A program made the position numbers and the translations under genes. Shown here piece by piece: positions 1-64,000 of a DNA stretch of 64,000 nucleotides. A model generated the notes under the pieces. It had not been told where the DNA came from, ran no database searches, and saw only the letters and a list, made by a program, of their open reading frames with translations. Source of the DNA: a virus. Each line of letters starts with the position of its first letter. Position 1 is the stretch's first letter. The stretch spans positions 1-64,000 of the IMG/VR virus record IMGVR_UViG_3300035193_000030; one strand, given 5' to 3'.

Positions 1-120
1 AGACCAAGACCCAGACCTAGACCCAGACCTAGACCAAGACCAAGACCCAGACCTAGACCAAGACCTAGACCAAGACCAAGACCTAGACCAAGACCAAGAC
101 CTAGACCTAGACCCAGACTT
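1..120. repeat. Tandem hexamer array AGACC(A/C/T), copy A
   Basis: About 20 hexamer units read directly, varying essentially at one position. Confidence 0.95.
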
Positions 121-147
121 AGTCCCTTCGTATAAAATTGTGATCAT
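1..147 (-). CDS. Ser-X low-complexity peptide, copy A (MITILYEGTK-SG-SR-SR-SW-SW-SR...), truncated by window edge
   Basis: ATG at 147-145, 6 nt after the primase stop; the 10-codon leader is identical to copy B, followed by TCT-(T/G/A)GG hexamers. Confidence 0.6.
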   Translation of the reverse strand, partial: MITILYEGTKSGSRSRSWSWSRSWSWSRSWSRSGSWSWSRSGSRSGSWS

Positions 148-3136: not shown

Positions 3137-4765
3137 CTAATTTTTATATTGATTAATAAGTTCCATTATTAAAGATGAAGAATTTGTTTGTACCCCATCT
3201 AATACTAAGTCTAATATTTTTCTTTTTGAGTCCAATAATGAAGCAATTTTTTCTTCAATAGTTCCCATCGCCAGTAATTGGTATACAGTAACATTATCTT
3301 TTTGTCCAATTCGGTGACATCTGTCTTCTGCCTGTATTAATTCACCAGGGGTCCAGGGTAATTCAATAAATGCAACTTTATTTGCTGCGGTTAATGTTAT
3401 CCCTACACCTGCGGCACGAATATTTCCAACAAATAATTTTACATTTGGATTTCGTTGGAAACGATCTACCATTGCTTGTCTTTGTATCCCTATTATCGTT
3501 CCGTCAACCTTAGCAACTCTACCATAAAAATGTTTACAAAGGTTGTCAATAACAAATTTATGATTGGCAAACACTACTAATTTATTATCCTCTAAAATAT
3601 TTTCAATCCAATTTATTATCATTTTTAATTTACCCTTAATAGCTACCTGTTTTAAGCCTTCTATTTCGGTTAATATTTCTGCATTTGCCGCCCTTTGTGC
3701 GGTATCATTCCCTTTATATTGTTCTAGGTACTCTAAAAAATTATTTTCTGCTTGCTCATATTCCTTTCTATTATCCAATAAAATCGGGACAAAAGAATAT
3801 ATTTTCTCAGGTAATTCCTGCAATACATCTTTTTTTAACCTCCTTAGCATTATATTTTCAGAAAGAATTTTATAGAGTTCTTGTGTATTTGAAGCCCCAG
3901 ACATATCCCACCCAAATCCATTATGATAAGCATTACAAAATCTGTGAGCATATTGCATATAATTTGGGAATAATTTTTTATCTAGTATAGAAATGATATT
4001 GTAAAATTCTACGGGACAATTTAATATTGGTGTTCCTGATAATGCAATAATATGAGGAATTGTTTTACTAATTCTTTTAACCGTTTTTGTCCGCTTTGCA
4101 GAATTATTCTTTATATATTGGCATTCATCAATAATTAAGGCTTTTGGGTTTATCCGCAATAATTCATCTTTCCAATTATTTAAAATATCATAATTAATTA
4201 TTATGAAGTCAGATTGGGAACCCAATCTATACGGGTTTCCCCCTTCTAAGACATTTATGTTTCTGTAATCAATCCATTTAATAATTTCATTCCTCCAATT
4301 ATACTTTAATGAGGCTGGGCAGACAATTATTACAGGGCGTATTTCTTTATGTAATTGAAACCAACCTAATGATTGAACCGTCTTTCCCAACCCCATTTCA
4401 TCCCCAATTAAGCATCTCCCGTTTTTAATATCAATAAAATGAACCCCTTTTTTCTGATATGAAAATAATTGATTTTTCATTCCTGGAATATCTACTTCTG
4501 AAAGTTCTATTAATTTTTGTTTTGTTAATTTCCCTTTCTGAATCCGTTCATAGATAATCTGTAATTTTACATCAAATGAAAATTTATAATCATATAATTT
4601 CTCTATTGCTTCAATTGATAAAGGACAATGCCAAATCTTTTTTTCAACATTCCATTTTCTTCCAGGTAATGTCCGTACAAAATCTAAGGTATTTCTATTA
4701 AACGGGAATTTTATAATAATTATTCTTTCCCCTGATTTATAACGAGCAATTGAAGCAGATTTCAT
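3137..4765 (-). CDS. SNF2-family helicase (HARP/SMARCAL1-like)
   Basis: DEMGLGKT, DECQ, LSGTP, QAEDRCHRIGQ motifs. Confidence 0.9.
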   Translation of the reverse strand: MKSASIARYKSGERIIIIKFPFNRNTLDFVRTLPGRKWNVEKKIWHCPLSIEAIEKLYDYKFSFDVKLQIIYERIQKGKLTKQKLIELSEVDIPGMKNQLFSYQKKGVHFIDIKNGRCLIGDEMGLGKTVQSLGWFQLHKEIRPVIIVCPASLKYNWRNEIIKWIDYRNINVLEGGNPYRLGSQSDFIIINYDILNNWKDELLRINPKALIIDECQYIKNNSAKRTKTVKRISKTIPHIIALSGTPILNCPVEFYNIISILDKKLFPNYMQYAHRFCNAYHNGFGWDMSGASNTQELYKILSENIMLRRLKKDVLQELPEKIYSFVPILLDNRKEYEQAENNFLEYLEQYKGNDTAQRAANAEILTEIEGLKQVAIKGKLKMIINWIENILEDNKLVVFANHKFVIDNLCKHFYGRVAKVDGTIIGIQRQAMVDRFQRNPNVKLFVGNIRAAGVGITLTAANKVAFIELPWTPGELIQAEDRCHRIGQKDNVTVYQLLAMGTIEEKIASLLDSKRKILDLVLDGVQTNSSSLIMELINQYKN

Positions 4766-18255: not shown

Positions 18256-18385
18256 AAATAATACTATATTGCTCGGATAGTTCTTTTGGGAGTATTGAAG
18301 TATTTCAATACAGTGATTTTGAACCAAATAAACCATATTGTACAGGATTTATAAAAGAACAAATGAATAAATTCAATAAAAGATC

Positions 18386-18940
18386 ATGAAAAAACTAGAT
18401 TTCGAAACAGGTGACAGGTTTCTTATAAAAGGAAATGGATTCCTGGCCAAAGGCATACAAGTTTTTATGGAAAAATATTGTCGTGATAATGGTATTACAT
18501 GTGATTGGATTGGAAACCATGCCGGTAGTATAGTGGTTGAAGATGATCATATTTGGATTTATGAAGCTGTAGCTGAAGGATATGTAAGACATGATTTTTC
18601 GACAGAATATGCCCATAAAAAAGGGTGGATTACTATGCGTAAAAAAGGTGGAATGACTGACAAAGAGAAAAAAAGATATGCTAATAATGCCAGAAAATTG
18701 AAAGTTAAAGTTGTGAGTTACCAATTTTGGAATTTTCCACAGTGGATGGCTTATATTTTAAGTAGAGGAAAAATAGATTTGTTTGGGTTGGGTGATGATT
18801 CATTTGTATACTGTTTTGAGGGGGAAGAGAGAAATTGTAATGCTTCATTTCCCGGACATTTTCCATTGCCTGAAATGGCTACATGGCCTGATTTATATCT
18901 TGACCCGCTTTATGAAATAAATATTGATACTCGAAAATAA
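18386..18940 (+). CDS. Permuted papain-like (NlpC/P60, YiiX/YebB-type) enzyme
   Basis: GD..L, NHAG (His), YEA and downstream YCFE (Cys) in permuted order. Confidence 0.65.
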   Translation: MKKLDFETGDRFLIKGNGFLAKGIQVFMEKYCRDNGITCDWIGNHAGSIVVEDDHIWIYEAVAEGYVRHDFSTEYAHKKGWITMRKKGGMTDKEKKRYANNARKLKVKVVSYQFWNFPQWMAYILSRGKIDLFGLGDDSFVYCFEGEERNCNASFPGHFPLPEMATWPDLYLDPLYEINIDTRK

Positions 18941-53976: not shown

Positions 53977-54140
53977 TAATTAGTTATAAATTCTGGGTAA
54001 ACCCAATATATAATTCCTTTTTCTATATCTTTTATTACATACCATATATCATAAATCCAACCTATTATAATTCCTGGTTTCTGTACTAATTGTTCTGTCT
54101 TAAACCAAACTAATTCATCTTTGTTAAAATGGCAGATCAT
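53976..54140 (-). CDS. Small 54-aa protein between the two polymerase halves
   Basis: MICHFNKDELVWFK...YWVYPEFITN; its TAA overlaps the PolA ATG. Confidence 0.45.
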   Translation of the reverse strand: MICHFNKDELVWFKTEQLVQKPGIIIGWIYDIWYVIKDIEKGIIYWVYPEFITN

Positions 54141-55362
54141 GGTATATTATATCTTTTAGTTTTTCCGCTAATCTGTATTCGTAAATTGAATCCCATGCAC
54201 AATAAGTTAATAACTTTTCTTTTCCTGACTCTGTTTTAATTAAATCAATTATTCTGTTAAATTCATTTGCATTTTTTTCATCTCCTACTGATTTCAAATA
54301 AGGTTCTATTTCACTTGAATAGTCAATAATACCAAAATTCACATATACTTGAAATTTCAATCCTGTAATACTTTGTCTGTTATCCATAATATGAGATGCT
54401 AACATTGTATCAAAATTCCAACCTTTCACTTCTGTTCTCAACCTAACTTTACTCCATGTATGTTCAAATTTCATATTTTGAGCGACCTTCTCTATATTAT
54501 TATTTTCTAATACACGTATAAAAGGAGCTATTTTACTTCTCTCATTTGGTATCATAAATACGTAGCATAGTTCACTACTTACAGCAACCGAAGCACAAAT
54601 TATTCTGTGTCCAATTCCATGTGGTTTTATTCCTGTAGTTTCAAAATCAAAGGCAATTACTTGCCCTTCATTAATATTATCTAAAATAGATAAATCTTCG
54701 ATTATTTTTATTTTTGCTTTCTTCTTTTTTTTCACAGGTATATCTATTTTACTTATTGCTAGTTCTAAATCTTGTTTCCAAATTAATTTGACTACGGGCA
54801 TATCTTGTGAACGTTCAACATAACTAGGGTGAAATGTAGGAATGATCCAACTATTAAAATCTTGATCAGGAATTGCCCAACCTCTCCATTTGGAAATACC
54901 ATCCATATTCTTTTTCCATCTGTGTCCTATTATACTATATAAAGCACTTTTCCCAAGTAATATTATTATATTTGGTTCATACTGTTTAATTGCTTTTAAA
55001 ACCTTTACCGATCTACAACATTCTATTTCAGCATTTGTAGGGGTTCTGTTATATCCTTGTTTATCAGTTGGTCTACAATTTACTGCATTTAAAACAATAC
55101 AATCTTCAAATAGGTTAATATTTAAATTAGATAAAGTATTTCTTAATAATATCCCGGTCTTCCCTTGGAAAGGTTTTCCTCGTGCATCTTCAATTTCCCC
55201 TGGGGCTTCGCCAATAATCATAATTCCTTTACCAAACGTGCCATATGGTTGCATTCTTGCGGACTTACAAGTTCTATATAACCCGCAAGAAGAACAACTG
55301 TGTATTCTCCCATCTGGACGTGTTATTGAATCTGTTTTCTTTTTATTAAAAAATCCGTTCAT
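54124..55362 (-). CDS. Family-4 uracil-DNA glycosylase fused to a PolA-type 3'-5' exonuclease
   Basis: C..C.L, GEAPG, PFQG, CRP, HPS; then DFETTG (ExoI), QNMKFE, DTMLA, YCAWD (ExoIII). Confidence 0.88.
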   Translation of the reverse strand: MNGFFNKKKTDSITRPDGRIHSCSSCGLYRTCKSARMQPYGTFGKGIMIIGEAPGEIEDARGKPFQGKTGILLRNTLSNLNINLFEDCIVLNAVNCRPTDKQGYNRTPTNAEIECCRSVKVLKAIKQYEPNIIILLGKSALYSIIGHRWKKNMDGISKWRGWAIPDQDFNSWIIPTFHPSYVERSQDMPVVKLIWKQDLELAISKIDIPVKKKKKAKIKIIEDLSILDNINEGQVIAFDFETTGIKPHGIGHRIICASVAVSSELCYVFMIPNERSKIAPFIRVLENNNIEKVAQNMKFEHTWSKVRLRTEVKGWNFDTMLASHIMDNRQSITGLKFQVYVNFGIIDYSSEIEPYLKSVGDEKNANEFNRIIDLIKTESGKEKLLTYCAWDSIYEYRLAEKLKDIIYHDLPF

Positions 55363-56421: not shown

Positions 56422-57921
56422 TTAAATATAAAAATTATTTTTTATTTTCTTCATATCCCCTTTATAAAAAATCAATATATTTTGATGTGATTTTCCAATT
56501 TTTCTTGATATTTTAAAAGTATTCCCTGTTCTTAAAAAAAGTGATCCAATAGGTGTTTGGTATACAATATCATTATAAAAAACCATTCCATATCTTTTAA
56601 ATATTTCTATCGTATCCCCTACGAAATTTCGCAATTCCCCCGTTTTTTTATCCCTAAAATTACTTACAACTACGCAAGCAAACCTATTTTCTTTTAATTT
56701 GTTAATAGCTTTTTGTAAAATCCGACCATACATAAATATAAAACGTTCATATGTCATATTACTAATATCTTCTTTTAAATCACTATATTTTTCCATATTA
56801 CCATACGGGGGGCACGTAAAAATAAAATCTGATTCTGGTGCTTTTTTTAATGTTTTATAAGAGTCACCACATACCCAAATTAAAAATTGTATGCTTTTGT
56901 CTTTATTTACATGATCATTCCATTTTAAAATATCATATTTTTCATGATCAATTTCACAATATAAGTCATGGTCATATATCCCATCTTTTATATACTTAAT
57001 TATTTTATCTGTTTGCACATTTCCAAATAAAAATTGTAAACTTTGCTTGTGTGTTTCATAAATAGGCAATTTTCCTTCTTTAACTTTATAACACTTTAAT
57101 AACCTATATCTATTTCGTACAATTAACGTATCATTGTTATTTATTGTAAATGGGCTAATTATACATCCAAATGGTTTATTGTTATTATCATGTAATGAAC
57201 ATAAGTTATCATTTCTCTTAAAAGGGCATTTATTATTTTCATTAGGTGTAAGTAAATTATCAACTATACCCCCCCCTAATTTAATTATTTTCTCTTGTTC
57301 AGTTAAATATATTGGAACGATTACCCCCTTATTTTTATCACTACTTTCACAACATTTTGCAAAACATATATTTTTTATAAAATTCTCTGTACACGGATGA
57401 AACATTCGTTTTAGATAGGCAGGGCTTATTTTTATCTTTTTTTTGGCGGTGAGCCTGTTTTTAAATATTTCTTGTGCATTGTCATAATTAGCTTGAACTT
57501 GTTCCCCCCTTAACTCACCACCCCAATAACTATAACCCATACTTTTTGCAACTACCCCCCTTACTGAACCCCCAGCAAACGGGTCTAATATAACCCCATT
57601 GGCAATACAAAACCAAGAATACATTAATTCACACAGTACGGGGTCAAATACTGATGTACTATTATTAATCCAAACATCAGACCCTCCTGTATACCCTTTA
57701 TTTGTAATTCTTCCATCTGCATCTCTTCTTAATAAATTCCCTTTCCTTCCCCTTTCACTTTTTATACCTAAATTTAACCATTGTCGTTTCCTGTCCAACC
57801 AAATTTTATCAAACCCACGTAATACAGAAAAAGGGGGGAATATAAATTTTCCTGATAACCCTATTTTTGTTAATTCTTTTACAGTAATGCCTAAGTTATT
57901 ATTTAATTCTAATTTTTTCAT
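56422..57921 (-). CDS. DNA amino-methyltransferase-like protein with inserted Cys-rich domain
   Basis: DPFAGGSVRG SAM motif, FTCPPY catalytic motif; about 185-aa insert with C..CC...CPF...C.LH..KP..C...PF. Confidence 0.8.
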   Translation of the reverse strand: MKKLELNNNLGITVKELTKIGLSGKFIFPPFSVLRGFDKIWLDRKRQWLNLGIKSERGRKGNLLRRDADGRITNKGYTGGSDVWINNSTSVFDPVLCELMYSWFCIANGVILDPFAGGSVRGVVAKSMGYSYWGGELRGEQVQANYDNAQEIFKNRLTAKKKIKISPAYLKRMFHPCTENFIKNICFAKCCESSDKNKGVIVPIYLTEQEKIIKLGGGIVDNLLTPNENNKCPFKRNDNLCSLHDNNNKPFGCIISPFTINNNDTLIVRNRYRLLKCYKVKEGKLPIYETHKQSLQFLFGNVQTDKIIKYIKDGIYDHDLYCEIDHEKYDILKWNDHVNKDKSIQFLIWVCGDSYKTLKKAPESDFIFTCPPYGNMEKYSDLKEDISNMTYERFIFMYGRILQKAINKLKENRFACVVVSNFRDKKTGELRNFVGDTIEIFKRYGMVFYNDIVYQTPIGSLFLRTGNTFKISRKIGKSHQNILIFYKGDMKKIKNNFYI

Positions 57922-58689
57922 TTATTTTCCCCATAACATTATGTGTTCTCTCGATGTATAACGAACATTATGTTTAATAGCCATTTCAACGGTCATTTGT
58001 TGGTTTGCAATTAATTCTTCTCGTGTAGAACCGCAAGGCATTAAAACAACCTGATCTTGTTTTATTAAACCATTTATTATAAAATTTAACCCTATCTCAT
58101 CCCAATCATCTTTACTTGTAATTACAAATTTGAACCATGAATTTTGTAAAGATGATAATTTTTTTAGGACAGATGTTATGTAACGTCTTTTTGTTAGATT
58201 TCCACTTGATGAAAGTTTTGGGGAATTATTCCATATATTAACGAAAGAAATCATCTGAGGCATAGGCATTATAGTACATTCGTTTTCAATTTCTATAAAT
58301 GGTTTAAAATGATATAATGCTTGGAATTTTTGGATAAATTTTATTATCATCTCTTGTTGTAATAATGGACTTCCTCCAGTAAATACCAAATGTTGCCCTT
58401 CCCGTAAATTTGAAATAACATCATATTCTTTCATTAATTCAAATAATTCATCTAATGTGTATGGATTTCCATAACGCCATACCTCTTTCGTATCACACCA
58501 TACACAATTTAATGTACAAGATTGAAGTCTAAGGAAAGTACATGGATATCCTACAAAGTTTTCCCCTTGTATTGTATTACAAAAAAATTCAGATACCTTT
58601 AAAAAATCTGTACTTCCAACATTCCTTTTAAAATTGGGATTCCCTTTAATTATTGTTGTCGGAAATTTCTGTGTCTGTAAATTGTTCAT
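57922..58689 (-). CDS. queE: 7-carboxy-7-deazaguanine synthase (radical SAM)
   Basis: TIQGE, FLRLQSCTLNCVWCDT, FTGGSPL, SPKL; start placed at the second Met. Confidence 0.88.
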   Translation of the reverse strand: MNNLQTQKFPTTIIKGNPNFKRNVGSTDFLKVSEFFCNTIQGENFVGYPCTFLRLQSCTLNCVWCDTKEVWRYGNPYTLDELFELMKEYDVISNLREGQHLVFTGGSPLLQQEMIIKFIQKFQALYHFKPFIEIENECTIMPMPQMISFVNIWNNSPKLSSSGNLTKRRYITSVLKKLSSLQNSWFKFVITSKDDWDEIGLNFIINGLIKQDQVVLMPCGSTREELIANQQMTVEMAIKHNVRYTSREHIMLWGK

Positions 58690-59032
58690 AACGTGCCATT
58701 GTTTTAGGTGTTTCACAAACTTCTATTGCATATAATAATGGGAATTGTTCTTTAAATATAGCATATAAATGCAATGCTATATTTTCAGCAGTGGGATTAA
58801 ATGTACAAAAATCATTTAAGAATTTATGATCAAATGCTTTATCTAAATACTCTTTAATTGTATCTAGATCACGATAATCCATTACAAATCCAATCTTGTC
58901 CAAAGCATTTGCCCGTAGTTCTACAATTACGACATAATTATGTCCATGATTTCTCACACAAGGATGATCTTGTGGTAAATTCAGCAAGCAATGCCCTGCT
59001 GAAAATGAAAATTCTTTTCTTATTATAAACAT
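58646..59032 (-). CDS. queD: 6-carboxy-5,6,7,8-tetrahydropterin synthase
   Basis: FSAGH, C.R.HGHNY, DH..LN, PTAENIA, ETP. Confidence 0.92.
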   Translation of the reverse strand: MFIIRKEFSFSAGHCLLNLPQDHPCVRNHGHNYVVIVELRANALDKIGFVMDYRDLDTIKEYLDKAFDHKFLNDFCTFNPTAENIALHLYAIFKEQFPLLYAIEVCETPKTMARYEQFTDTEISDNNN

Positions 59033-60002: not shown

Positions 60003-61541
60003 CTACCAAAAACTACCAATAAATGGGCGTCCACACCGAAGGTTTTGCAATACATGAATCTGATTCCGTATATTAAAATCCCCTTCTCGAATTACAATTT
60101 CATTTATTCTCATTATCCCAATTTCTTTTTCTCGCCCGTGTGCATCTTGATTTAATCCATACATTGCTGTAACGTGCCCGTATTTTCTTTTATCTTCACT
60201 AAAATTAGTCATTCTTAACGTATCCTTTGCATAACTTTCCGCATCAGCTTGTGTTGCAGTTAAGATTAGACAATGTTTTTCCTGACCTAATCCTCTCAAT
60301 TGCTTCCATATATGGTTTTGTTTATGTCTTTCCTCTTTATAACTATTATCTTCTAATAAATCAGCATAATCTATTATAATCACATCAGGAACAAAATTAT
60401 CTTGTTTTTCCCAAATTCCTAAAATTGCTCTAATTTCATTGACACCTAAAGAACCATTAACGTGAGTAGAAAGACGAAAGGATCGTTTATTCTTAATAAA
60501 AAACTTTTCTATTGCTTCTTTTGCTTCATCTTCGGTTAAAGGCTCTTTTATTTTTATTTTCTTAATAAAAGGTGTTCCCCAAGGATTTTTATTAAATTCC
60601 TTGCAATTAAAACAATTCTTATAATCTTTATTATTTTTATAAACTTCTTTCAATTCTTTCATTGTAATCTTATAACGGTAATTTTCATCCTTATTACGAA
60701 ATAAACCGAAAGAACATTCACGTTCTTCCTTATCACAATTATCCAATTGATTATGTATACAATCTATTACAGGAATATAAAACTCCCCTGTATATTTTTC
60801 ATTATCTGACTTTCCTTTCAATGAAATGCAAATTCTTTTTAATTGTTGGTGTTCAGTCATATCACCTGCCTGGAAAAAAGCGACCTTCCTTTTTTGTGTA
60901 CATGCCTTCTTAGCACATTCAAGTAACCACCAGGTTTTTCCTCTTTTTTCAGGGGCTAAAAACGCTACAAATCCATCCCTTACAAATTGATCATTCCAAA
61001 AACGTCCTAATTCTTTTGGGAATTGTATTAATACCTCAGTTGATTTATTAAATACCTGCCCTATCTTATTCATCACATTTTCTTTATCTTCAAAATTAAT
61101 ACAATTCCCCATTTCTTTTGATAATGGACGATACCCTGATGCCATATTTTCTGCTTCATAAAGTAAACCTTGTTCGGCTAACCCTTTTATTTTGTCAGAA
61201 AAACGAATTAAATTTCTTTCATTAAAGAATTGTAATGCTTTATCCGTATAATATTCTACATTAAAATCATCATTTACATATTCTTCTGACAAGCCAGGTA
61301 ATATATCTTCTTCTATTTCTTGTATTATTTCTTTTTGCAAGCCTTTACCTGCCTTTGCGTAAAGTATAGATTCAATTTCTCTCCCAGGAGCTTTATTGTA
61401 TTTATTAAAATAATCTAAACACCAACTAGCTAATCTTTTTGCAATACTACTTTCAAATAATGCAACATCCCATTTACCTTTTATACGTTGATTAAATTCT
61501 GTGGAAACTATTAATCCAATTACTATCTTTCGTTCTATCAT
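60003..61541 (-). CDS. Replicative DnaB-like helicase
   Basis: APEKRGKT Walker A, IIIDYADL Walker B, TATQ, SEDKRK. Confidence 0.85.
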   Translation of the reverse strand: MIERKIVIGLIVSTEFNQRIKGKWDVALFESSIAKRLASWCLDYFNKYNKAPGREIESILYAKAGKGLQKEIIQEIEEDILPGLSEEYVNDDFNVEYYTDKALQFFNERNLIRFSDKIKGLAEQGLLYEAENMASGYRPLSKEMGNCINFEDKENVMNKIGQVFNKSTEVLIQFPKELGRFWNDQFVRDGFVAFLAPEKRGKTWWLLECAKKACTQKRKVAFFQAGDMTEHQQLKRICISLKGKSDNEKYTGEFYIPVIDCIHNQLDNCDKEERECSFGLFRNKDENYRYKITMKELKEVYKNNKDYKNCFNCKEFNKNPWGTPFIKKIKIKEPLTEDEAKEAIEKFFIKNKRSFRLSTHVNGSLGVNEIRAILGIWEKQDNFVPDVIIIDYADLLEDNSYKEERHKQNHIWKQLRGLGQEKHCLILTATQADAESYAKDTLRMTNFSEDKRKYGHVTAMYGLNQDAHGREKEIGIMRINEIVIREGDFNIRNQIHVLQNLRCGRPFIGSFW

Positions 61542-62338
61542 ATTGCTAATGGTAATTTATTTAATATCTTCATACTAACATGTGTATAAATTTCAGTTGT
61601 TTTGCTTGAGGAATGCCCTGCAAGTTTCTGAATTATTCTTAAATCCACTCCCTGATCAGTCAAATTTGTAAAACATGAATGTCTAAGAAGATGAAAATGA
61701 TATTCTTCTCCCAAATATCGTTTAACTATTTTATTACAACTTCCGGCAGAATATTTTAAACAATTTTGCCCATTAAACAAATATTTCTTTGGTTTATATT
61801 GTTTGTAATATTTTCTTAATAATTCCAATAAAGTAGGGGTTAATGGGACTATTCTATCTTTGTTACCCTTCGCTTGTCTTACATTTATTATCATTCTTTT
61901 ACTATCAACATCCGTAATTTTTAAATTTATTACCTCTGATACTCTTAATCCTACTGAATAAGATAATGATATTATGGCTTTATGTTTTAAATTTTTTATT
62001 TGTTTTATTGTATTTAATAAATAATCTTTATTAATAACCTGTGGCAAATGTTTTTCTTTCCTTGGGCGTTTAAAATCAATTTTGTTATATTTTTTACCCA
62101 AAACTTTTTCCCACCCAAATTTTATGGCATTTATGATTTGATTTTGCTGTGAAATGGAAGAATAATCAAAATTTAATAAATAATTTTGTATATCATTGGC
62201 GTTTAAATGTTGAGGATATTTATTAAATGACTGTAAAAATTTTTCAAAATAATGTCTATATATTTCAATTGTTCTTTCTGAATAATTGAAATATTTTAAT
62301 TTTTGAATATAAATTTTTAAAAAATTAGTATGTAACAT
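61538..62338 (-). CDS. Tyrosine recombinase, integron-integrase-like but lacking the IntI-specific insertion
   Basis: YSERT..Y, QNQ.INAIKF, LPQV, GLRVSE (R), KG.KDR (K), HLLRH (H-x-x-R), GH...TT.IYTH (H, Y). Confidence 0.9.
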   Translation of the reverse strand: MLHTNFLKIYIQKLKYFNYSERTIEIYRHYFEKFLQSFNKYPQHLNANDIQNYLLNFDYSSISQQNQIINAIKFGWEKVLGKKYNKIDFKRPRKEKHLPQVINKDYLLNTIKQIKNLKHKAIISLSYSVGLRVSEVINLKITDVDSKRMIINVRQAKGNKDRIVPLTPTLLELLRKYYKQYKPKKYLFNGQNCLKYSAGSCNKIVKRYLGEEYHFHLLRHSCFTNLTDQGVDLRIIQKLAGHSSSKTTEIYTHVSMKILNKLPLAI

Positions 62339-62391
62339 ATTTAGTACAAATTAATTAGCATTACAATTTTATATATAATAGTTCAAGTCAA

Positions 62392-62706
62392 TTACGCTTC
62401 GCTTAGAAATTGTTTAAGTGTGCAATCACATTTATTTGAACCAGCAATACTTCCATTAAAGTTATAATACGGAACTTGCCCAGTATCTCCACACTTAAAA
62501 CATTTCACACTACGCTTGACGGTAGCTTCATTTAAAATTTTTATAGCTTTTTTTAAGTTACGAATATTCCTTCCATTCTCAATTACATGTTTGTGCCCTA
62601 TTTCTTTTACAATTCTCTTATCAGACTTAGCCCATTCTTTAGAATCAGAATATTCTTTTTCTAATTCTTTAATTTTTTGTTCTAATAATTCTATTACATA
62701 TTTCAT
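62392..62706 (-). CDS. Cassette protein: coiled coil + CxxCxxxG zinc finger
   Basis: CFKCGDTG...CDC; stop codon inside the terminal repeat. Confidence 0.7.
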   Translation of the reverse strand: MKYVIELLEQKIKELEKEYSDSKEWAKSDKRIVKEIGHKHVIENGRNIRNLKKAIKILNEATVKRSVKCFKCGDTGQVPYYNFNGSIAGSNKCDCTLKQFLSEA

Positions 62707-62743
62707 AATTAAAATTTTAAATTCTCACTACCTAATTGACTTG

Positions 62744-62887
62744 AACGGGCGCGGTGTGTCCGCTCTTATCATTCTTTTCCCGAGCGAAGCGAACGTGCCT
62801 CGAACAAGGTGTAAACTGAATTTAATACTTTTCTCTTGCTCGTTCCTCACAAGCGGTATTAAACTACAGTTTCACACCGCGCCCGTT
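62744..62887. repeat. attC-like hairpin 1
   Basis: Perfect 15-bp IR AACGGGCGCGGTGTG/CACACCGCGCCCGTT plus an imperfect IR 62808-62828 / 62856-62878. Confidence 0.8.
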
Positions 62888-62905
62888 ACCAACAATAAAA
62901 AATTA

Positions 62906-63283
62906 TTATCGGTGTAAGTAAACATTAGTTCTTTCGGTGTCGCCGTCTCGCTCGAACCATCCAAAATAAACCTTTTTCTTCCTGCCTAGTACGTGTGGTG
63001 CTATCCAATCAATAAATGTATTTAATTCTTCGCTCTCGTAGTTAATATCGGTATGTATGGCAAGTTCCCATCCATTTTTTACCTCTTTTACATAAGGTTT
63101 ATCATACCCACCATACCCCATTGTTGCAAACATCTGGTACCATCTTTGTGTGTCAAAAAATGGATTCTTCTCGTATGGGGCATCGTGGTTATTTTCAATA
63201 CATTTATTTAGCCACTCTATCAAACTTTCGGGAGTATTCCTACCAAGGTTTATTTTTAACTTTATCTCAGTTATGTAGCTCAT
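62906..63283 (-). CDS. Cassette protein, hypothetical
   Basis: 125-aa ORF filling the space between 19/22-bp inverted repeats. Confidence 0.75.
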   Translation of the reverse strand: MSYITEIKLKINLGRNTPESLIEWLNKCIENNHDAPYEKNPFFDTQRWYQMFATMGYGGYDKPYVKEVKNGWELAIHTDINYESEELNTFIDWIAPHVLGRKKKVYFGWFERDGDTERTNVYLHR

Positions 63284-63300
63284 AATTTTTAAAAGTTGGT

Positions 63301-63420
63301 AACAATGTACATAGGTAATTTGCCGTGTTTCATTGTTACAGTTGTTTGTAATTCAAATTTATCTCTTTGTTGTTACTTAATGCGTCAAGCAGGGGCAAAC
63401 ATACCCATGTACTCAACGTT
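63301..63420. repeat. attC-like hairpin 2
   Basis: AAC-aat-GTACATAGGTAATTTGCC ... GGCAAACATACCCATGTAC-tcaac-GTT, imperfect stem with bulge. Confidence 0.75.
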
Positions 63421-63679
63421 ATGGCAAATGCGAGAGCATTATTTTACAAAGTTCATCTGCATCTAATCCATAAACGCTTATTAGTTCACTACTGTAGTAT
63501 TCGTTTTTATTATATATCTGGTAAAACTTATCTTTCTCATAGTTATAGTCAATATTATCTAATGTAGGCGAAGCACTTACCATAACACTAAATAAATTCC
63601 ATAACTCAGTTTGTGCCTGTTCGGGGGTCAGTTCTCCGTTTGCAACTTTTGTAAGTAATTCTAACTGTTGTTCTTTCAT
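63419..63679 (-). CDS. Chimeric cassette protein spanning a recombination site
   Basis: Start and first ~31 codons lie in hairpin 3; the remainder lies in cassette 63418-63586. Confidence 0.7.
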   Translation of the reverse strand: MKEQQLELLTKVANGELTPEQAQTELWNLFSVMVSASPTLDNIDYNYEKDKFYQIYNKNEYYSSELISVYGLDADELCKIMLSHLP

Positions 63680-63706
63680 ATCGTTACGGTATTTATTATT
63701 TTCGTT
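63584..63706. repeat. attC-like hairpin 3 (coding)
   Basis: AAC-acta-AATAAATTCCATAAC ... GTTACGGTATTTATT-attttc-GTT, 13/15 match. Confidence 0.75.
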
Positions 63707-63765
63707 GTAATTAAAACGAAACTACAACACATTATATAAATAATGCGCTGTAGCTCGTATCAACT

Positions 63766-63987
63766 TTATTCCTCTCCCACGCACCATTCTAAAGTTTCAA
63801 TCTTATAACCATATAAAGCCAAATGCCTTGTTACCATATCAGCATACGGTGGCAACATAGGTACTTTACCGCTTTCAATATCTTTCCATTGGTCATCCCA
63901 AGTCTTTTTTTCAGCCTTTAGTTCGGCAATTTTGTCTTTAACTTCTTGTTCGCTTTTCATTTTATTAAGTAATGCCCACGCTCGCAA
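63766..63987 (-). CDS. hypothetical protein in the array (probable start MKSEQ at 63960)
   Basis: MKSEQEVKDKI...KIETLEWC small helical phage protein. Confidence 0.6.
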   Translation of the reverse strand: MRAWALLNKMKSEQEVKDKIAELKAEKKTWDDQWKDIESGKVPMLPPYADMVTRHLALYGYKIETLEWCVGEE

Positions 63988-64000
63988 ACGTGGAGGTTTA

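Follow-up and report, generated by a model that had tools for sequence, protein, structure and literature searches.

The last 2.5 kb of the viral DNA analysed here raise the question of why several small genes beside a tyrosine recombinase gene are each bracketed by an inverted repeat of their own. The DNA, referred to below as the window, comprises bases 1-64000 of the 72,076-bp virus record IMGVR_UViG_3300035193_000030, the rest of which (64001-72076) was read as locus L002. The window has a G+C content of 31.6%, and the minus strand carries nearly all genes from about 72 kb down to 54 kb. A preliminary description of positions 61538-64000 had seen a cassette array built on integron logic, in which the GTT start of each cassette complements the cassette's own AAC end. 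This core of the description held, as the same architecture recurs upstream of the recombinase in dozens of viral contigs. We consider the region to be the recombinase-proximal end of an integron-like gene-capture array in a 72-kb phage and give this reading a probability of roughly 70%. The array continues beyond the window to approximately 67,400. Its open reading frames (ORFs) share one strand with the recombinase gene and read towards it, which departs from the integron rule that genes point away from intI and are read from a promoter Pc. The elements are listed below (aa, amino acids; nt, nucleotides), with positions above 64,000 in genome coordinates.

61538-62338, minus strand: tyrosine recombinase of 266 aa, Xer-type, matching Pfam Phage_integrase (3.9e-35) and Phage_int_SAM_4.
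62360-62380, minus strand: stretch read as an attI-like docking site, GAAC followed directly by TATTATATATAAAATTGTAAT, with the AAC 42 nt before the recombinase ATG.
62381-62746, minus strand: unit A, a 104-aa ORF (62392-62706) with the perfect 14-nt inverted repeat GTTCAAGTCAATTA / TAATTGACTTGAAC (62381-62394 / 62733-62746).
62747-62884, minus strand: 138-nt G+C-rich hairpin that separates unit B from unit A and directly abuts TAAC and GTTC.
62885-63303, minus strand: unit B, a 125-aa ORF (62906-63283; phrog_4334, function unknown) with the 19/22 inverted repeat GTTACCAAC... / ...GTTGGTAAC (62885-62906 / 63282-63303).
63304-63417, minus strand: 114-nt hairpin between units C and B, TAAC-N5-stem...stem-N3-GTTA, belonging to the 112-120-nt size class.
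63418-63682, minus strand: cassette 3 (unit C), an 86-aa ORF (63419-63679) between two TAAC borders, with arms GTTATGGTAAGTGC (63573-63586, inside the ORF) and GCATTTGCCATAAC (63418-63431).
63704-63753, minus strand: two overlapping small hairpins without a gene, namely GTTGTAGTT-N7-AATTACAAC (63704-63728) and a 14-bp stem (63722-63753) with two G·T pairs.
63766-64000, minus strand: 3' part of the small ORF that follows in the array and extends to genome base 64038.
64056-64564, outside the window: DUF5662 unit with arms GTTAGCAAC/GTTGCTAAC.
67295-67367, outside the window: 79-nt hairpin, followed by a 78-aa unit that ends at 67020.

Read on the minus (coding) strand, a cassette consists of a hairpin, a few bases, a left arm beginning with GTT, one small gene, and a right arm ending in AAC. 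Viewed on the plus strand, the region has the arrangement of an integron, with the recombinase gene pointing left, then the docking site, and then cassettes that each start with GTT. The two arms of one cassette are complementary to each other, and the cassette borders lie at AAC. All four inverted repeats of the preliminary description (14/14, 19/22, 12/14, and 8/9 positions paired) were found where it had placed them, and the hairpins in the window indeed share no sequence with each other. In unit A, the stop codon lies within the right arm, and a similar GTTCAAG arm pair occurs in locus L005 immediately upstream of its recombinase. The arms of cassette 3 pair at 12 of 14 positions; the remaining two form G·T or T·G wobbles when read on the minus strand, and one of these occupies arm position 11, as is typical of the family. 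The small element GTTGTAGTT-N7-AATTACAAC, in which 8 of 9 positions pair and the mismatch is a G·T on the minus strand, has the arm form of the family and is empty inside.

As a control for chance complementarity of the arms, the 60-nt flanks on either side of each of 113 crude gene calls were scored for their best mutual complementarity. The two recombinase-adjacent ORFs scored 14 and 13, and a score of at least 13 was reached by 5 of 4,000 non-cognate flank pairs. Throughout the genome, many A+T-rich inverted repeats score 9-10, and a loose genome-wide scan for 12 of 14 paired positions returned many weak GTT...AAC pairs, which were mostly noise.

A perfect 15-bp stem (AACGGGCGCGGTGTG / CACACCGCGCCCGTT), which includes the AAC and GTT triplets, closes the segment 62744-62887. 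With DNA parameters, this segment folded with z-scores of -5.9 on the minus and -5.5 on the plus strand, and none of 200 shuffled sequences was as good; the 138-nt hairpin itself reached -6.8 (minus) and -5.2 (plus) with RNA parameters. We read this hairpin as the inner stem of the folded site of cassette 1, which in this reading spans 62381-62884; cassette 2 spans 62885-63417. For the 114-nt hairpin, the DNA-parameter fold of 63296-63425 was not significant (z -1.45, 18 of 200 shuffles as good), whereas the fold of 63300-63422 with G·U pairs allowed was significant on the minus strand (z -4.0, 0 of 200 shuffles), the plus strand giving z -1.2. The preliminary description had seen the AAC..GTT intervals as imperfect hairpins, and with both strands analyzed this was borne out as DNA for the 138-nt hairpin, but for the 114-nt hairpin only with G·U pairs and on the minus strand. 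The region of the small hairpins (63700-63765) reached z -6.5 (minus) and -4.2 (plus) with RNA parameters, and its DNA-parameter folds were not significant. The minus strand folded better than the plus strand in all four window elements tested. Searches gave no tRNA and no match to an Rfam family. In terms of the attC layout, the AAC/GTT bounds and the two-stem form are present, and no bulged bases were seen.

To what extent this architecture is general was addressed with relatives of the recombinase in IMG/VR, where a first scan gave 27 loci and a profile scan at least 479 relatives, with 80 loci returned. With units defined by 15-nt arms that pair at 14 or more positions, 92 distinct loci (1.03 Mb) contained 198 GTT...AAC units in the orientation of the recombinase gene and 5 independent ones in the opposite orientation, as compared to 20-21 units in reversed or complemented null sequence, so that units are about 10 times as frequent as in the null. 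In 178 of the 198 units, a G·T wobble occupies arm position 11. All four Watson-Crick pairs occur at arm positions 5-9, which indicates that the arms are conserved as pairs and not as sequence, although the required pairing of 14 of 15 positions builds part of this covariation into the scan; the wobble position and the single orientation are not built in. The unit next to the recombinase had at least 14 of 15 positions paired in 20 of 31 loci and in 1 of 150 control AAC sites. Start codons are found within the left arm or a few to 60 nt past it, and stop codons in or just before the right arm, in agreement with the earlier remark on stop codons at cassette ends. Likewise, the poor fit of the boxes to the integron consensus GTTRRRY proved correct for the whole family, which does not keep this consensus and has the form GTTA[T/G]nnnn.

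The short gaps between units in the related loci fall largely into two size classes, 112-120 nt (31 of 61) and 76-86 nt (8 of 61), and the two gaps of the window measure 138 and 114 nt. Nearly all gaps of 30-200 nt (51 of 53) fold as a single enclosing hairpin that begins at most 8 nt past the preceding AAC and closes at most 5 nt from the next GTT. The loops of the 115-nt class carry a common motif. Near-identical pairs among 107 IMG/VR loci were mostly the same contig fetched twice and were set aside, as was the pair L051 and L052, which differ downstream of the recombinase and not at a site.

The recombinase-proximal end of the array is marked by a conserved docking sequence that consists of (T/G)AAC and then TATTATATATAA. 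An AAC-TAT-TATATA-TAA junction is common to most of the 22 listed loci, and 41 of 73 loci have AAC(N0-6)TATATA, for the most part with 42-43 or 52 nt separating it from the ATG downstream. The docking stretch of the window (62340-62394) showed no fold (z 0.0), and we read 62360-62380 as a docking site and not as a hairpin. Homology between otherwise unrelated contigs starts at the docking AAC and stops at the stop codon of the recombinase gene. Three contigs (L051, L052, and L079) start at position 1 exactly with the docking TAAC, as expected if assemblies break where the first cassette varies in the population. A docking site beside the integrase at which cassettes insert, as integrons have it, is therefore found here in sequence, and insertion at the corresponding AAC is seen in the Freya phages described below. 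In a backbone relative, locus L029 (10001-10075), the docking sequence is kept, followed by the first 25 recombinase codons only and then directly by the helicase gene. After the right arm of the DUF5662 unit, at genome positions 64040-64055 (L002 4040-4055), stands a TAAC-TAATAATTATATGAA sequence that resembles the docking sequence and may be a relic docking site within the array.

The content of the cassettes is almost never shared between arrays. An all-against-all tblastx comparison of 66 units gave one homologous pair only, and the arms of this pair differ by compensatory changes. The backbone of the phage is shared by four loci only, each of which has other small genes ahead of its recombinase; most of the remaining loci have nothing but the recombinase in common. 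Recombinase homologues with adjacent GTT/AAC arrays of variable content, which the preliminary description had predicted, are thus common. The cargo is mostly of unknown function, with matches to phrog_4334, DUF5662, and a radical-SAM/UPF0004 protein. Unit A (62392-62706) encodes a distant paralogue of a 98-aa ORF situated 7 kb upstream (69679-69975; L002 9679-9975); the two are 26% identical over 93 residues (E 6e-6), and both start with MKYxIELLE and have Cys-rich tails. A 79-nt hairpin with the GTTAGCAACAGT arm that follows it is more than 90% conserved between contigs and also present in this genome; in six matching IMG/VR loci and this genome, it stands in front of at least five different genes, which mostly end in ATTGTTGCTAAC.

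Two comparisons bear directly on mobility. A homologue of the cassette 63418-63682 is present in another array (L080), and in both genomes it has TAAC borders on both sides. Identity is 67% inside these borders (170 of 253) versus 51% (39 of 76) and 40% (23 of 57) in the flanks, and the L080 homologue keeps both arms, including the arm inside the gene. The second comparison concerned the cultured Polaribacter phages Freya_1, 2, 5, 6, 8, 9, and 10, which are about 100% identical except for blocks of 296 nt to 4.9 kb. The block junctions all read ...AAC/ACCCCTATAACAACAATAAG (also given as ...AAC/ACCCCTATAAC) and lie 47 nt before the integrase ATG. The phages form a nested series, in which Freya_1 has no block, Freya_5 has the first block, Freya_9 has more, and Freya_10 has one additional integrase-proximal cassette; the integrase gene starts at position 83 in the record of Freya_1 and at 4180 in that of Freya_10. 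Freya_6 carries a different block, which is absent from Freya_10, at the same insertion point. As the junctions share AAC only, ordinary homologous exchange is unlikely. The Freya cassette ends ATTGTTGCTAAC, ATTGTTACCAAC, and ATTGTTTACAAC match right arms of the window, and the family motif ATTGTTnnnAAC, which the right arm of unit B (ATTGTTGGTAAC) fits, is present at Freya cassette ends too. Exchange of cassettes as units at G/TT is therefore seen in relatives, both in the Freya insertions and deletions within or next to AAC and in the L080 cassette. Of the shuffling proposed in the preliminary description, this much stands, and no event was found in the lineage of this phage; the evidence of mobility comes from the relatives and not from this phage. 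A term search of the text of the paper that described the Freya phages returned neither the word cassette nor the word integron (Bartlau et al., 2021, PMC8776804).

Which enzyme could serve such an array was judged from the recombinase sequence. The recombinase stop codon overlaps the start of a DnaB-like helicase gene (60003-61541), for which a search of the phage collection gave weak partial matches only and no cultured relative of the backbone. The catalytic residues R132, K157, H216, R219, H242, and Y251 are invariant across 16 aligned relatives and correspond to the R-K-H-R-H/W-Y set of the tyrosine recombinase superfamily. The best curated match was NCBIfam XerA, with 181.7 bits against a cut-off of 220; XerC (135.4 bits, cut-off 335) and XerD (134.9 bits, cut-off 330) also stayed below their cut-offs, as did the integron integrase model TIGR02249, which matched in two stretches with 139.9 bits (cut-off 265). 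The XerA-type chains 4a8e (2.7e-33) and 5hxy (9e-30) of the PDB align contiguously to the recombinase, which makes its likeness to XerA clear at the level of the fold. In the alignment with the Vibrio integron integrase IntI4 (PDB 2a3v), 38 query residues (177-215) span 86 chain residues (180-266), which means that about 48 residues are missing in that region. We take it that the extra helix of integron integrases falls in this absent region. This I2 helix has been credited with the move of integron integrases from double-strand to single-strand DNA recombination by Escudero et al., 2020 (PMC7790495). Judged by sequence, the enzyme is Xer-like and not IntI-like, and the IntI-specific segment is absent. 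The earlier label of a non-canonical IntI-like recombinase was thus right in that the protein is a non-canonical tyrosine recombinase, and wrong in its IntI affinity, as the protein is Xer-like, scores below both curated cut-offs, and is devoid of the IntI segment.

These observations suggest the following mechanism. The recombinase would cut in or next to AAC (GTT on the other strand), and excision there would release the cassette as a circle, which brings the hairpin together with the right arm on one side and the left arm on the other. Folded jointly, these three parts could make up a long stem in two sections that corresponds to the R and L boxes of attC. The folded site would then recombine with the docking site, so that new cassettes would enter beside the recombinase gene. 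At a junction within the array, a right arm is joined with a foreign left arm, and only TAAC and GTTA can pair there. That each gene is bracketed by its own long inverted repeat would be explained by own arms pairing in the circle and foreign arms meeting in the array. The G·T at position 11 would leave the helix intact on the minus strand and give an A·C mismatch on the plus strand; the minus strand consequently folds better, and the wobble may mark the strand for recombination, like the extrahelical bases of attC. That the cassettes move as single-stranded hairpins is indirectly suggested by this strand-asymmetric folding and by an assay reported in passages of Qi et al., 2023 (PMC9892861), in which IntI1 recombined the bottom strand, not the top strand, of attC2 from Polaribacter phage P12002L.

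Three other explanations have to be weighed against this capture mechanism. The cassettes might be exchanged at duplex sites in the manner of Xer and dif instead of as folded single strands, since joined cassette ends would form a near-palindrome ...ATTnnnnnTAAC/GTTAnnnnnAGT... that resembles two recombinase-binding arms around a central TAACGTTA. Duplex-site exchange by Xer has been proposed for the pdif modules of Acinetobacter plasmids. It also speaks for duplex sites that the best matches of the recombinase are XerA-type, that the segment tied to single-strand recombination by Escudero et al. (PMC7790495) is absent, and that the single asymmetric arm position 11 could give a duplex site its polarity. 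However, the arms differ between cassettes and are kept as pairs only, which leads one to expect recognition of structure and not of sequence; at an array junction, the arms are separated by a hairpin of 80-140 nt, so that no duplex core site exists unless the hairpin is extruded; and the plus and minus strands fold unequally. We therefore regard exchange at duplex sites as unlikely. Chance matches in A+T-rich DNA, or the ends of unrelated miniature transposons, are a far poorer explanation that we consider very improbable. The abundance of A+T-rich repeats scoring 9-10 and the many weak GTT...AAC pairs of the loose scan speak for chance, but scores of 13 or more in merely 5 of 4,000 non-cognate pairs and units at about 10 times the null frequency, in one orientation and with one wobble position, do not, and chance is excluded by these controls. 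In the transposon version, unit contents that are mutually unrelated cannot be copies of one transposon.

According to the third explanation, the stems have their function in RNA, where they control how a long early transcript is processed, terminated, or translated, and the recombinase is an ordinary integrase or dimer resolvase at the edge of a hypervariable early region. The G·T pairs (G·U in RNA) are confined to the coding strand, and all units have the orientation of their genes, which fits RNA equally well. Gene starts just after or inside the left arms, stops inside the right arms, and the common loop motif of the 115-nt hairpin class point in the same direction, and in passages of the Freya description, the integrase is interpreted as no more than an indication that the phages are temperate (Bartlau et al., 2021, PMC8776804). 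A role in RNA leaves unexplained, however, why the GTT/AAC ends are invariant and why the docking sequence is tied to the recombinase start in unrelated contigs. The Freya insertions at the AAC beside the integrase, the shared cassette bounded by TAAC, and the recombination of the P12002L site by IntI1 (PMC9892861) are equally unaccounted for. We consider this explanation, taken as a replacement for cassette capture, to be quite improbable, but roles in RNA and DNA are not mutually exclusive, and an RNA role may coexist with the capture mechanism.

Several further points weigh against the interpretation as a capture array. In the phage itself, the array is partly degenerate, with some intergenic stretches that contain no clear site, with a unit A that lacks the G·T pair, and with one arm placed inside a gene; it is also more worn than the arrays of loci L003 or L008. 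L029 retains units, including two far downstream at 18264-18846, despite its recombinase remnant of 25 residues. The occurrence of the same arms with different cargo behind the 79-nt hairpin is not predicted by a simple model in which a gene takes its own arms along; in chromosomal integrons, uniform attC sites likewise carry different cargo. The Freya integrase is only 35% identical to the recombinase of the window, and the array beside it is less regular. In this phage itself, no recombination event was seen; it occurs as a single form in only one public run, which is stored as contigs and may be the source of the record, and exact-match scans for lineage variants with the docking stretch in IMG/VR and with the 5' end of the recombinase gene in metagenome contigs were empty. 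One weak joint in that run, with a side of 27 nt and 85% likeness, was taken as spurious. To these points comes the covariation that was partly imposed by the scan.

Some additional observations concern the part of the array and genome beyond the units treated so far. At genome positions 67857-68324 (L002 7857-8324), 468 nt contain no long ORF and include a G+C-rich structured segment; the stretch is flanked by the gapped arms GTTATAAAC...AAAGCGGAA / TTCCGCTTT...TTTTTATAAC, has no match in Rfam, and may be a cassette with RNA instead of protein cargo. A perfect 17-nt inverted repeat, TAATGAACCGCGAATAT, surrounds a 60-aa ORF (64696-64712 / 65063-65079; L002 4696-4712, 5063-5079), and as its GAAC/GTTC polarity is the reverse of what the other units show, it may be inverted or represent a different kind of unit.

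On the other side of the recombinase gene, three adjacent minus-strand genes occupy 56422-59032, beginning with a 499-aa protein with a DNA methylase domain and continuing with a radical-SAM/4Fe-4S protein (57922-58716) and a 6-pyruvoyl-tetrahydropterin-synthase-like protein (58646-59032). From its Pfam matches, this trio recalls queE/queD-type genes of 7-deazaguanine DNA modification. A minus-strand ORF of 412 aa (54124-55362) fuses a uracil-DNA-glycosylase-superfamily domain with a 3'-5' exonuclease domain. Both ends of the record carry the hexamer repeat AGACCN (window 1-130; genome 71860-72076, L002 11856-12076), which on the minus strand reads as a long Gly-Leu or Gly-Ser run and may belong to a gene. 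As the record ends overlap in this repeat, the genome is circular or terminally redundant.

Cassette capture has its textbook example in integrons, which are defined by one enzyme family and regarded as bacterial. If the array described here is what we propose, the extra IntI segment would not be needed for cassette capture, the fast turnover of small early phage genes would have a mechanism, and integrase-less attC clusters seen in phages would be accounted for. It would also offer compact new recombination sites and enzymes for study, and the phage counterpart would be widespread, given the at least 479 relatives in IMG/VR. A more far-reaching proposal, to which we give even odds, is that phages of Bacteroidota-like hosts run an integron-type capture system of their own, with a short Xer-like recombinase lacking the IntI segment, long composite hairpin sites, and strand choice by a fixed G·T wobble instead of bulged bases. 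In that case, single-strand cassette capture would have arisen twice or would predate the integron integrase, and the orphan clusters in flavobacterial phages would be parts of a phage system and not stray integron pieces. As the Freya phages and their Polaribacter host are cultured, the idea is directly testable.

Among known systems, integrons, especially the sedentary chromosomal ones, resemble the array in many respects. In both, a tyrosine recombinase gene adjoins a docking site at the start of the array, cassettes carry one gene, and an imperfect hairpin bounded by AAC and GTT stands between cassettes. In both, the start of a cassette complements its own end, a footprint of the circular intermediate, and the content is highly variable, with one type of site serving many cargoes. 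They differ in that the phage recombinase is about 48 residues short of IntI4 and stays under the integron-integrase cut-off, and in that the complementary ends measure 14-22 nt, compared to 7 nt in integrons. Moreover, attC has extrahelical bases where the phage sites have a conserved G·T wobble, GTTRRRY is replaced by GTTA[T/G]nnnn, transcription of the cassette genes would run in the direction of the recombinase, and the carriers are phages.

No account of an integron-like system operated by this Xer-type recombinase turned up in a full-text literature search, and the nearest work concerns clusters of attC sites lacking an integrase (CALINs) in phages, three of which, all virulent, were tested (Qi et al., 2023, PMC9892861). 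According to passages of that paper, classical attC models found two sites per phage and no cognate recombinase, and the sites were explained as integron parts that had been picked up. We found that the P12002L genome carries sites of the present family beside methyltransferase genes, namely ATTGTTGCTAAC, AATTACTGCCAAC, and hairpins with a TATATAC stem, and that it has no annotated integrase. Unlike these clusters, the sites studied here form arrays with their own Xer-type recombinase and docking site; the link to P12002L consists in the presence of the site family in its genome, and the family sites are not identified as the tested ones.

The Xer systems, that is, archaeal XerA as well as XerC and XerD, share with the phage enzyme the best sequence matches, which are XerA-type. 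In pdif modules, genes are bracketed by inverted recombinase sites, as in the phage cassettes. The phage sites, however, are cassette-specific pairs with hairpins and not one conserved 28-bp dif-like sequence, the phage recombinase gene travels with its docking site and array, and its product does not reach the XerA cut-off. The "cassettes" of epsilon crAss-like phages are diversity-generating retroelements and not relevant here. Finally, in T4-type phages, Arbiol and colleagues are said to have described in 2010 promoter/stem-loop (PeSL) cassettes, in which small genes of hyperplastic regions, separated by stem-loops, are reportedly shuffled as units; the repeated elements reportedly share sequence, and homologous recombination was invoked. 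In contrast, the stems of the array described here are unique, its borders are AAC and GTT, and it is linked to the gene of a site-specific recombinase.

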